Positions 5,980-64,000 of a stretch of 64,000 bases of DNA are shown piece after piece; within the stretch, counting starts at the first letter, position 1, and every line of letters starts with the position of its first letter. Position numbers and translations under genes: made by a program. The DNA comes from a virus: IMG/VR virus record IMGVR_UViG_3300029913_000003, positions 64,001-128,000 of that record; one strand, written 5' to 3'. A model generated the notes under the pieces. That model worked only from the letters and a program-made list of their open reading frames with translations. It made no database searches and was not told the DNA's origin.

Positions 5980-6950
5980 GGTTGAAATTCCAGGAAAGTG
6001 GATCAATAATGAGCAGAAAGTTAATGTCTTTCTATCGCTTTTGTTAAGTCTTATTTAAAATTCTTCTATATTAATTCTGTTGTTTTTTTAAAGCGTTCTT
6101 TGTAAAATTGAAAATATTTGGCTGTCTGTAGTCATAAATAAACTACGAAAGTAGTATAAAGTGAGTTATAGTTGTTTCTATAACTTGCGGTATTAAATGT
6201 GCAGTTGATTTTATTTTTTCGGAAATAAAATTAATTGTAAACAATAATACTTGAGCAGACAATCAGGATATCATTAAACCTTGATTATCGAGGGTAACAC
6301 TGTAGAGAAAGTGGTTTAATGCAAAGGCTATGTGGGTAGTCTGAGTGAGATGGGAACATCAATAAGAATAACCTGAAGGATTATTGCAAGAAATACGATT
6401 TCCAGTTGTGTAATTGCGTTATCCAATATAAAAGTTGACTTAAAACCGAAAGGTAAATTAGATTGTAATACAATGTACAGGTGGTGCTGTAATTAAGGTT
6501 ACCTTAACATTACCAAGTGTTACGAGAGTATCTTAGTTGACTTAAAATATGGAGGTAGGGATATCTCAGAGAGTAGTTTAGTATAGCTCAGTTCAAAAGA
6601 TTGAGAAGCTGGTTGTCGAACCACTACTTTCATCATCCACAAAACAAACTTTAACTGCAAATTTAATGCAAATTAAAATAAACAAATAAAGGAAAAGAGT
6701 TCGACTGTTGTTAGTGATAGGTGACTACTAGTTATGAGAAGCAATTCGTCGTAGCCGTGAAAGACCCCAAGTCCAACATGATTTTTAAGAAAGTTCTCTA
6801 AATCCGCAAGATTTAATCTGGAAGGCATTCTAGATGAGTAATGATTATTAAGAGAGTAATTAACAACAAAAGGAGTGGTGAATCTAATTGACCGTCATTG
6901 GAGGAGTACCAATTCAAAAGATTGGTGGAAAAGAAGCAGAAAAAATAATA
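5980..6950. ncRNA. Candidate large structured non-coding RNA (GC-elevated, ORF-free ~1 kb)
   Basis: About 35-40% GC by eye against about 25% around it. No ORF of 60 aa or more on any frame. Many short GC-rich helices. A tRNA-like D-loop/T-loop pair (TAGCTCAGTT ... GGTTGTCGAACC) near 6580-6635. Confidence 0.3.
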
Positions 6951-6999
6951 GTTTCTAAAGTTCTTCTCTATAATGCTGTATTCTCAAGCAATATAAAAT

Positions 7000-57974: not shown

Positions 57975-58151
57975 ATGAAAAAAATATTAATTTTAATTGC
58001 ATATCCTATTATTTTTGCTATATTAGGATTATTAGTATTTTCTTATGTTGGATTGATATTTGGATTCCTATTTGGTTTAATTATTGATTTTTTTTGGTTC
58101 GAAATATCAAAATCAATTATACACGGAGAAACATTATATGATGAATATTAA
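57975..58151 (+). CDS. Small membrane protein
   Basis: MKKILILIAYPIIFAILGLLVFSYVGLIFGFLFGLIIDFFWF has two hydrophobic helices. Confidence 0.4.
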   Translation: MKKILILIAYPIIFAILGLLVFSYVGLIFGFLFGLIIDFFWFEISKSIIHGETLYDEY

Positions 58152-58467
58152 AACATTAGTAATACGACTTAAAGAATCATGTAAAAATGCGATAATTCAA
58201 TGTTCAACAAGAACATTTGAAATTAATAATTGGTCAACATTATATAATAAAGATAGAACAAATTTTAGGGAGTATAAGTTAACTGATAGAGGATGGATTA
58301 ATTTAAATCTTTCTGATTTTCAATTTTCAAATATTAAACCTATTAATATTAAACTTCAAAGAAATATGAAAATAAAATCATTAGAATTAATACCAGAATA
58401 TGATTATAAAATTTGGACTGATGATGAAGTTTATAAACATTCTAGATTTAAAGAATTACCATTTTAA
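58138..58467 (+). CDS. Hypothetical protein
   Basis: Start at MMNIKTLVIRL. Overlaps the previous ORF by 14 nt. Confidence 0.4.
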   Translation: MMNIKTLVIRLKESCKNAIIQCSTRTFEINNWSTLYNKDRTNFREYKLTDRGWINLNLSDFQFSNIKPINIKLQRNMKIKSLELIPEYDYKIWTDDEVYKHSRFKELPF

Positions 58468-62532: not shown

Positions 62533-62811
62533 ATGAAATTTATTAAAACTTATGAATTTTTCGAATATAACATTCCTGAAAAAATTAAAAAATTAGCAAT
62601 TGAATTAGAGTTTAAATTTAGAACTACAAGTAAAGAAGATATGAAAAATAAAACTATCTTCCAAATTATAAAAGAACTTGGATTTGATTCAGGTGAATTA
62701 TCTGGAGCTGAATTAGGACAAATTCTAATGTACCAAATGAAATTTAATAAACAAACAGATGAAGAATATCTTAAATTCTATAATGATTATAAAAAAAATC
62801 CTGAAATTTAA
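62533..62811 (+). CDS. Family A-like protein (N-term MKFIKTYEFFEY; no C-terminal tag)
   Basis: N-terminal tag variant. Followed by a terminator hairpin at 62800-62830. Confidence 0.45.
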   Translation: MKFIKTYEFFEYNIPEKIKKLAIELEFKFRTTSKEDMKNKTIFQIIKELGFDSGELSGAELGQILMYQMKFNKQTDEEYLKFYNDYKKNPEI

Positions 62812-62904
62812 ATTTCAGGATTTTTTTGTTCTTTCTCTAAGATTTGAACTTAGTCATTCATTGTCAGAAAATGATATGCTATCATTACATCAAGAAAGAA
62901 TATT

Positions 62905-62991
62905 GTCGCCTTGGTGGGGTTCGAACCCACAAGCTCACAATGAGCATCAGTTTCAAAGACTGAAATGTTTAGCCAATTCCATCACAAGGCA
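62905..62991 (-). tRNA. tRNA, type II (long variable arm), anticodon UUG by manual folding
   Basis: Read on the minus strand:
- acceptor stem TGCCTTG / CAAGGCG (U1-G72 wobble), U8, A73
- 3-bp D stem ATG / CAT
- anticodon stem TCAGT / ACTGA with loop CTTTGAA
- variable arm GCTCA-TTG-TGAGC
- T arm GTGGG-TTCGAAC-CCCAC. Confidence 0.6.
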
Positions 62992-63185
62992 GTATATTAA
63001 CAAAAAACCCAACATAAAATGTTGGGCACAAAAAAACCCAAACCATTTCAGGATTGGGTAAAAAACAGACATGACTCTAACCCAATCAAACGTAAGTTTG
63101 TTGTTGTTGCTGAATCATGTTTGAAATATTATTATTCATAAGAATTTTAATTTTTGTTTGTAATGTATATAGTAATATAATTTTA

Positions 63186-63389: not shown

Positions 63390-63404
63390 ATTTTTAATTT
63401 TTTA

Positions 63405-63440
63405 ATTTATTAAACTTCCTTACTGAATATATCAGTAAGG
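63405..63440. terminator. Hairpin CTTCCTTACTGAatatatCAGTAAGGAAG
   Basis: 12-bp perfect stem. A second, related hairpin lies at 63645-63672. Confidence 0.4.
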
Positions 63441-63801
63441 AAGTCTTTCTAAAAACTAAGTAATACAACTAACAAAATTTAACAAAAAGAAACATCTTTT
63501 GCTTCACAGCAAATTGTAGATGTAAAAAGAAATCCAAAGATAAGTAAAATATTTTATTCCTACAATAGGAAAATGATTTTATTTATAAAAATATTATATA
63601 TTGATGTCTTTTAATATTTTAATTTTATTAAACTCTCTTACTGATAAACAGCAAGAGAGTTTTTTATAAAACAATATAACTAATAAAATTAAAAATTAAA
63701 TATCTCTTGCTTCACAACAAATAGATATTAAAATCAAATACAAAGATAATATAAATATTTTTATTGTGCAAGTTTTTTATATATAAATAAAAAATATTTT
63801 T

Positions 63802-64000
63802 ATGAAACATTTAAAAACATTTAAAATATACGAAACAGGAGAATGGAGTAGAGATGTAAATTGGAACTATGTTAAAGATAATCCTGATGATGATAGTGAA
63901 GAAGCAAGTTTAATTAGGTATTTAGAAGAAAGATTAGATTATATAATTTCAAATTTAGATAATGATACTATATTAAAAATAAAAGATATTAGAGGACACG
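63802..64000 (+). CDS. Family A protein, 5' part (continues beyond window)
   Basis: MKHLKTFKIYETGEW... No stop before the window end. Confidence 0.5.
   Translation, partial: MKHLKTFKIYETGEWSRDVNWNYVKDNPDDDSEEASLIRYLEERLDYIISNLDNDTILKIKDIRGH

Follow-up and report, generated by a model that had tools for sequence, protein, structure and literature searches.

A minus-strand gene of a phage encodes a tRNA in which the glutamine anticodon UUG is carried on a body with the long variable arm of class II tRNAs. The tRNA is probably functional in decoding CAA, with glutamine as the amino acid most likely delivered; a scaffold derived from tRNA-Leu(UAG) would have been recruited as a class II-shaped tRNA-Gln(UUG). 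The long-arm tRNA(UUG) belongs to a widespread phage family that has apparently not been described before. The oddity concerns the structure of the tRNA and leaves the genetic code as it is. According to textbooks the long variable arm is reserved in bacteria for the tRNAs for Leu, Ser, Tyr and Sec, whereas at least 32 distinct phage sequences combine a class II body of 7/5 geometry with an anticodon for Gln and an acceptor end of the Gln type.

The long-arm tRNA gene and its surroundings

The window, i.e. the whole stretch of DNA that was analysed, comprises 64,000 nucleotides (positions 64,001 to 128,000 of IMG/VR record IMGVR_UViG_3300029913_000003) and has a GC content of about 22%. Its genes include those for a gp32-type single-strand DNA-binding protein, a GIY-YIG homing endonuclease and an Eco57I-type methylase, and there are many small open reading frames (ORFs) without known families, which indicates that the window is part of a large phage. 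The region of interest was 100% identical in several public assemblies, one of them a contig of 244,678 bp. Searches of isolated phages with this region by megablast and blastn gave no match, and there is thus no close relative among them. A 236-amino-acid protein encoded next to the tRNA had no relatives in viral contigs. Recoding of stop codons in the window was considered and rejected, as code 11 fitted and alternative codes brought no clear gain.

The tRNA occupies positions 62906-62991 on the minus strand and is 86 nt long up to the discriminator. ARAGORN reported it at 62905-62991 (-) with 87 nt and the anticodon ttg at position 36; base 62905 is a C past the discriminator. Rfam model RF00005, whose gathering score is 29, gave it 48.6 bits (E = 2.4e-7, calculated for both strands of the entire window), and the extra bases fell in the variable region of the alignment. 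The acceptor stem is formed by the 5' strand UGCCUUG (62985-62991) and the 3' strand CAAGGCG, which together with discriminator A73 at 62906 spans 62906-62913. It consists of a U1.G72 wobble pair and six Watson-Crick pairs, beginning with G2-C71 and C3-G70, and is followed by U8 and G9. The D arm, AUGG-AAUUGGCUAA-ACAU (62965-62982), has three Watson-Crick pairs, G13.A22 and a 10-nt loop with G18 G19, and the anticodon arm, UCAGU-CUUUGAA-ACUGA (62947-62963), presents UUG at 62954-62956. The parse placed a 13-nt hairpin of 5 bp in the 16-nt variable region (U-GCUCA-UUG-UGAGC-UU, 62931-62946), and the T arm, GUGGG-UUCGAAC-CCCAC (62914-62930), was recovered by Rfam and parse; all these elements lie on the minus strand. 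The 7-bp acceptor stem and the 5-bp T stem give the molecule its 7/5 geometry. CCA is not encoded, the discriminator being followed by CAAUA. The same holds for all other tRNA genes of the loci compared here.

The first-pass annotation, which had been made from the letters of the DNA, proposed a minus-strand tRNA with these arms and a UUG anticodon. The parse agreed with it on every element, and both programs gave the same orientation. Run on this segment, ARAGORN returned the anticodon UUG, as did Rfam, and neither a different anticodon nor a standard tRNA-Leu, tRNA-Ser or pseudogene call emerged. The U1.G72 wobble and a downstream tRNA-Gln(CUG), which both bear on the interpretation, were not mentioned in the annotation. 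Four independently assembled sequences of the phage (L001, L002, L005, L006) contain the identical gene. In the minimum free energy (MFE) structure of the single sequence the D and anticodon arms were not formed, and the fold z-score was only -2.1; the cloverleaf appears in the comparative fold only.

The tRNA-Gln(CUG) is of ordinary length and lies 6 nt downstream of the long-arm tRNA, at 62829-62899 (-). It was found by ARAGORN, which placed it at 62828-62899, and by Rfam (52.9 bits, threshold 29), and has 28% GC, U1-A72 and A73. A terminator-like hairpin with a T run (63007-63027, minus strand) lies just upstream of the tRNA pair and would terminate the upstream unit, so that the two tRNA genes are probably transcribed separately as a short unit of their own. 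Directly downstream of the pair there is a bidirectional terminator-like hairpin of 16 pairs with A and T runs at its flanks (62792-62827). Three terminator-like sites were found, compared with 0.1 expected from shuffles.

Further elements of the phage were recorded. In the minus-strand sense, window positions 63391-63810 contain two tandem intergenic units of about 208 nt that are approximately 81-84% alike and lie upstream of a 67-amino-acid ORF and the tRNA pair. Each unit has a hairpin, then a conserved GCUUCACAGCAAAU-like block, and a promoter-like site. The sister lineages have internal repeats as well, which measure 426-472 nt, lie at offsets of 420-450 nt and are about 69-72% alike. 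The tandem units may be small RNA genes or regulatory repeats. A full-length GOLLD RNA (Rfam RF02032, 278.9 bits, E = 1.6e-78) lies some 56 kb away from the tRNA pair at window positions 6569-6990 (+), and ARAGORN found no tRNA adjoining it. About 6 kb past the end of the window, a gene of the same phage has a precomputed Pfam match to Acb3 (PF25187; L001:13063-13824, plus strand).

A family of long-arm tRNA(UUG) genes

Exact-pattern scans of viral contigs with the D/anticodon arm of the window tRNA, or with its T arm and acceptor, found nothing. A looser pattern with fixed D loop, T loop and a spacing that demands a long arm yielded 24 viral, 70 metagenome and 24 genome loci. At these loci ARAGORN identified 47 distinct long-arm tRNAs with the D loop of the family, of which 31 had the anticodon UUG, eight had CAU and the rest were singletons or pairs with other anticodons. 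A 635-kb uncultured phage contributed one more UUG member, which lies between two canonical tRNA-Gln(UUG) genes. Nearly all of these 32 distinct sequences come from contigs of viruses or metagenomes. In a collection of 185,579 species genomes, two short MAG contigs were the only ones with a tRNA of this kind, and it is thus not a normal cellular tRNA.

The anticodon UUG was invariant in all 31 members, as were U33 and the two Us that precede the T stem. The D-arm motif GGAAUUGGYUAAAC was invariant across the family. RNAalifold, to which 28 distinct sequences and no structure were supplied, returned the cloverleaf and in addition a helix in the variable arm. Compensatory double changes were present in 18 of 23 pairs, and the three core pairs of the variable-arm helix were all among these. 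The GC content of the loci was 20-41%, compared with 44-58% for the tRNA. In the sister lineages (L011/L015/L018 and L012/L016) the flanks are 68-84% identical to the window, and the long-arm gene has a handful of changes. Selection maintains the gene in many phages, and in the two sister lineages it is nearly unchanged while the flanks diverge. At the sister loci it stands beside an ordinary tRNA-Gln(UUG) and/or tRNA-Gln(CUG), with no other tRNA.

A canonical tRNA-Gln(UUG/CUG) was present at the same locus in 21 of the 31 members, often less than 100 nt away, and at the locus of the window clade only tRNAs with Gln anticodons were found. Many phages possess the long-arm gene besides a canonical tRNA-Gln(UUG), which would be odd if both shared one job. 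Both the frequent redundancy with canonical tRNA-Gln(UUG) and the restriction of the window-clade loci to Gln anticodons hint at a main role other than ordinary codon supply. By its class II shape the long-arm tRNA could be a decoy for, or be resistant to, a host nuclease or toxin aimed at tRNA-Gln(UUG), or it could be recognised as 'self' by a phage enzyme whose task is the removal of host tRNAs. A protein containing a cyclic-phosphate processing receiver (cREC_REC) domain, encoded near the tRNA arrays of seven phages with long-arm tRNAs, also fits such a role. It is a 144-amino-acid ORF (PF20274, E = 1.7e-22), and the domain was located at L131 (minus-strand ORF), L031, L034, L040, L085, L086 and L125; this type of domain is linked to RNA repair. 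Phage tRNAs that evade tRNA-targeting defences are described in two reports (PMC10264068, PMC11555353). However, no nuclease or defence gene was linked to the long-arm tRNA in these loci, and the Gln-type acceptor and the invariant anticodon suggest a charged, decoding tRNA. A role of this kind is rather unlikely, and it would be compatible with recruitment as a tRNA-Gln and would not replace it.

No protein family common to all loci was found as a partner of the tRNA. A nucleotidyltransferase-like neighbour was rejected as a partner, as its match was below the Pfam threshold and it is only partly present in the window. In sister lineages a protein of about 258 amino acids (L015:5314-6060, L069:13687-14460) gave a weak match to the poly(A) polymerase/CCA-adding head domain (PF01743, E = 0.006, below threshold), and window positions 58084-58467 (+) match only the C-terminal 98 or so amino acids of this protein. 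A phage tmRNA gene was located at L034:3987-4358(-), within an array of 16 tRNA genes that also contains a long-arm tRNA-Gln(UUG). In phage tRNA arrays ARAGORN also reported four-base anticodons (ttcc and gtag; L036:44-117(-) and L133:2404-2477(+)). These calls could be decoders of the frameshift type or mis-calls.

Origin, identity elements and the reading of CAA

Among isolated phages the window tRNA had mainly annotated tRNA-Leu as blastn matches, the best of them being the tRNA-Leu(UAG) of Aeromonas phage APT65. The anticodon loops of the two, CUUUGAA and CUUAGAA, differ at position 35 alone. With the family consensus as query, the long matches in isolated phages were mostly annotated as tRNA-Leu and extended over nt 8-75, the acceptor stem being excluded. 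ARAGORN identified all five matches scanned as tRNA-Leu(UAG), and the four obtained with the consensus were type II. Several phage tRNA-Leu(UAG) genes have the same anticodon stem and variable-arm hairpin UGCCGAAAGG as members of the family. Identity to phage tRNA-Leu(UAG) was 54-74% in the core and 0-57% in the acceptor stem. Judged by these alignments, the core, consisting of D arm, anticodon stem, variable arm and T arm, is homologous to that of phage type II tRNA-Leu(UAG). A 'Leu-like D arm' was rejected as a diagnostic feature, as D loops with AAUUGG are found in canonical phage tRNA-Gln genes too. Moreover, several tRNA-Leu(UAG) loci had entered the set through a query-based pattern, which introduces an ascertainment bias. 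The relationship to tRNA-Leu was therefore taken from the unbiased blastn searches only. When genes of one locus were compared over their first 27 nt at the 5' end, the long-arm gene was usually nearest to the tRNA-Gln neighbour.

The converse oddity, a tRNA-Leu without a long arm, was also encountered. This tRNA-Leu(UAG) of 77 nt is widespread in phages, has a short variable loop of class I type and is almost identical to the window tRNA in its 5' half. It was found at L007:1500-1576(+), L009:2954-3030(+), L010:10902-10978(+), L013:10535-10611(+), L014:6501-6577(+) and L017:2542-2618(+).

At the acceptor end of the family, the 1:72 pair was U-A in 23 of 31 members, U.G in three (window clade only), A-U in three and U.U in two, and never G-C. 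The 2:71 pair was G-C in most members, and the discriminator was G in 13, A in 10 and U in eight. In the tRNA-Leu genes of the same loci A73 was present in all and G1 in most, and the related tRNA-Leu(UAG) genes have G1-C72. U1 is common to the long-arm tRNA and all canonical tRNA-Gln of these phages. The drift of the discriminator argues against selection of the LeuRS type, and the retention of U1 and a weak first pair fits selection by the glutamine route. The bacterial Gln set comprises U1-A72, G2-C71, G3-C70, G73, G10, the anticodon loop bases U34, U35, G36 and A37, and U38, and U1-A72 is read by GluRS2 and amidotransferases (PMC9976931). The window copy matches the E. coli set in its anticodon loop CUUUGAA and in G2-C71, but not in C3-G70, A10, A73 and A38; its first pair is weak and begins with U, but it is U1.G72 where the set has U1-A72. 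Canonical tRNA-Gln genes of these phages likewise deviate from the E. coli set (A73, and C2-G71 in some). Agreement of the discriminator between long-arm and canonical tRNA-Gln was seen at seven of seven loci at first and at 12 of 21 when more were included (permutation p = 0.11), and was dropped as evidence.

Glutamine is encoded by 329 CAA and 33 CAG codons in the 102 ORFs of the window, so that CAA accounts for 91% (329/362). The only UUG tRNA that ARAGORN found in the window is the long-arm gene. As CAA is the main Gln codon and this gene the sole UUG tRNA there, insertion of leucine would corrupt the phage proteome. The meaning of CAA was determined by aligning the window ORFs with the orthologues of two sister lineages and tallying the partners of the window codons. 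The 94 partners of CAA included CAA (46), CAG (4), Lys (9), Glu (8), Asn (7), Asp (4), His (3), Arg (3), Thr (3) and Ser (2), and Leu and Tyr did not occur. As a control, the 220 partners of TTA included 154 Leu, 27 Ile, five Val, five Phe and four Met. With these partners, and with no Leu among the 94, CAA specifies a polar, Gln-like residue. A recoding tRNA, which the first-pass annotation had listed among its explanations, is thereby excluded for the window clade.

As LeuRS ignores the anticodon, a tRNA of this shape might instead be charged with leucine and act as a missense tRNA that reads CAA partly as Leu, be it as deliberate ambiguity or as a tolerated side effect. Bacterial LeuRS needs A73 and tertiary elements of the core (A15-U48, G18G19, A20a), but neither the anticodon nor the arm (PMC9976931). 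The core of the family is homologous to tRNA-Leu(UAG), and the window copy has most of the determinants for E. coli LeuRS, namely A73, A15/U48, G18G19 and the G13.A22 core; owing to an extra D-loop base, position 20a is U and 20b is A. A precedent is provided by the nematode nev-tRNAs, which are Leu-charged class II tRNAs with non-Leu anticodons (PMC3333845). The family data are against this explanation. G73 or U73 is found in 21 of the 31 members and the 1:72 pair is never G-C; in E. coli a change of A73 to C in a minimal tRNA-Leu abolished leucylation, and G73 of tRNA-Ser is an antideterminant against LeuRS (PMC9976931). The window copy itself differs from tRNA-Leu in its anticodon, which is UUG and not NAG/YAA, and in its first pair, which is neither G1-C72 nor G1.U72. 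Its A73 is uninformative on Leu identity, because the ordinary tRNA-Gln of the window phage and of the two sister lineages also have A73. The Leu-type body assigned by the first-pass annotation was therefore retained as to the type II shape and, by homology, the Leu-like core, but not as to A73 as a mark of leucine. With no Leu among the 94 partners of CAA, and with damage to the phage's own proteome as the consequence, charging with leucine is unlikely. Some leucylation of the window copy could occur, considering its A73, the U.G at 1:72 and most of the LeuRS determinants.

Charging by SerRS or TyrRS via the long variable arm, with Ser or Tyr inserted at CAA, is very improbable. The long arm, G2-C71 and the G73 or U73 of many members would suit it by the same argument as was made for allo-tRNAs (PMC5389517), and U35 is shared with tRNA-Tyr. 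The bacterial Ser set consists of G73, C72, C11-G24 and a large variable region, and the Tyr set of A73 and G34 (PMC9976931). However, the family has A72 or G72 and U11-A24 in place of the C72 and C11-G24 needed for Ser, and the window copy (A73, G72, U11-A24) suits Ser only in its large variable region and in G2-C71; the A73 and G34 needed for Tyr are opposed by U34 and a variable discriminator. Moreover, only two Ser and no Tyr were found among the 94 partners of CAA. A pseudogene, a recent chance anticodon mutation of tRNA-Leu or a mis-fold can practically be dismissed: the anticodon loop is one base away from that of tRNA-Leu(UAG), and the single-sequence z-score and MFE structure are poor, but UUG occurs in 31 of 31 distinct sequences, compensatory changes are present in every helix, the gene is better conserved than its flanks and two independent programs gave the same fold, so that the pseudo-tRNA and mis-fold considered in the first-pass annotation are contradicted by conservation and covariation of the family.

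The tRNA is thus best explained as a class II-shaped tRNA-Gln(UUG) made from a leucine tRNA. A phage type II tRNA-Leu(UAG) would be the ancestor of the core, and the anticodon would have been switched by the single change A35U. The acceptor end would have been remoulded to the tRNA-Gln pattern, with U1 in a weak 1:72 pair, G2-C71 and a discriminator freed from A. We infer charging by the glutamine route of the host, either by GlnRS or by GluRS plus amidotransferase, because these enzymes read the anticodon and/or U1-A72. In the structure of the GlnRS-tRNA complex the variable-region side of the tRNA is left free by GlnRS. The tRNA would supply CAA decoding to a phage with 22% GC, and CAG might perhaps also be decoded.

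Parallel long-arm tRNAs and comparison with known systems

Other long-arm tRNAs with anticodons of class I amino acids were present in the same phages; the Pro and His genes had not been selected by the family search pattern. A tRNA-Pro(UGG) of 95-97 nt with a variable arm of about 25 nt and a D arm in the style of Ser/Tyr co-occurs with the long-arm tRNA-Gln, and C1-G72 and A73 were present in all 11 correctly parsed copies. It was located at L131:4286-4382(-), L073:2471-2565(+), L079:2990-3086(+), L084:1055-1151(-), L086:1870-1965(-), L105:162-258(+), L107:722-816(-), L122:120-214(+) and L040:4423-4517(-). Its best annotated blastn matches, which were weak, were tRNA-Ser. The anticodon UGG is one base away from the Ser anticodon UGA, as UUG is from the Leu anticodon UAG. 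A long-arm tRNA-His(GUG) of 86-91 nt was found at L019:3184-3274(+), L068:2286-2376(+), L071:928-1016(-) and L102:3713-3798(+), with an encoded G-1, G1-C72 and C73 in all four; the copy at L019 has exactly the D arm of the window tRNA. As C1-G72 and A73 are marks of Pro, and G-1, G1-C72 and C73 are marks of His (PMC9976931), the class II shape in these phages accompanies the identity marks of the amino acid to which the anticodon belongs.

Eight distinct long-arm tRNAs with the D-loop motif of the family have the anticodon CAU (Met or Ile2) and A or U as discriminator (L027:2259-2343(-), L029:3431-3514(-), L030:9521-9606(-), L083, L090, L099, L109 and L123). There are also tRNA-like genes of 95-96 nt (L026:741-836(+), L072, L081 and L110/L124) with the family D loop, A1-U72, A73 and a poorly formed anticodon arm, for which ARAGORN gave AAA, AAU or ACA.

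More tentatively, phages may repeatedly have turned class II tRNAs into class I decoders and kept the long arm as a shape-based mark of self and non-self, an idea that we regard as doubtful. Gln(UUG) would stem from Leu(UAG), Pro(UGG) probably from a Ser-like body, and His(GUG) and CAU from bodies resembling Leu. The long arm would set these tRNAs apart from the host isoacceptors and might thereby protect them, either from a nuclease or toxin of the host directed at those isoacceptors or from an enzyme with which the phage itself clears away the tRNAs of the host. If it is true that the shape evades tRNA-targeting immunity, this would be a new tactic in the phage-host conflict over tRNA.

Recruitment of tRNA genes by a shift of the anticodon was reportedly described by Saks et al. 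in 1998, and tRNA remoulding is also known from mitochondria. As proposed for the phage family, a tRNA acquires another identity in such alloacceptor remoulding by a point mutation in the anticodon and subsequent changes of identity elements. We know of no description of such remoulding across the boundary from class II to class I in phages. In the literature, of which coverage was incomplete so that an earlier description is possible, no account of a 7/5 long-arm tRNA-Gln, tRNA-Pro or tRNA-His in phages was found, and nev-tRNAs and allo-tRNAs were the nearest precedents. The family would be a natural record of a change of tRNA identity, in which one anticodon base was altered and the acceptor end afterwards. 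It is also a warning for annotation, as the shape of a tRNA does not reveal its amino acid, and the scaffolds are possibly orthogonal to some enzymes and of use in genetic-code engineering.

The long-arm tRNA resembles canonical bacterial and phage tRNA-Gln(UUG/CUG) in the anticodon, U33, a purine at position 37, a weak first pair of the U1-A72 type and G2-C71. It also has in common with them a similar 5' strand of the acceptor (UGNCC...), the AAUUGG-type D loop of many phage copies and the position in the genome, the genes being adjacent. It differs from them by a hairpin instead of a loop of 4-5 nt, by G13.A22 and by an extra base in the D loop; the window copy in addition has U.G at 1:72, and its 16-nt variable region with a 5-bp hairpin is not class I architecture. 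Phage type II tRNA-Leu(UAG), for example that of Serratia phage Kamaji, Streptomyces phage LukeCage, Aeromonas phage TSW001 and Lactobacillus phage Satyr, has a homologous core and the 7/5 geometry, whereas the long-arm family has A35U, an unrelated acceptor (a weak pair with U1 compared with G1-C72), a discriminator that is not fixed and a D loop that is one base longer. Allo-tRNAs and the (8/4) tRNA-Ser/tRNA-His also combine long arms with diverse anticodons, and some of them occur in phages (Mukai et al., PMC5389517). Their geometry is 8/4 or 9/3, with a Sec-like D arm and Ser/Ala identity in the allo-tRNAs, whereas the phage family is 7/5 with a Leu-like core. The nematode nev-tRNAs (PMC3333845, PMC4300185) are likewise class II tRNAs with anticodons outside Leu, Ser and Tyr. 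However, they are eukaryotic, have Leu identity and are leucylated in vitro, whereas the acceptor of the phage family departs from the Leu pattern and matches the amino acid of the anticodon.
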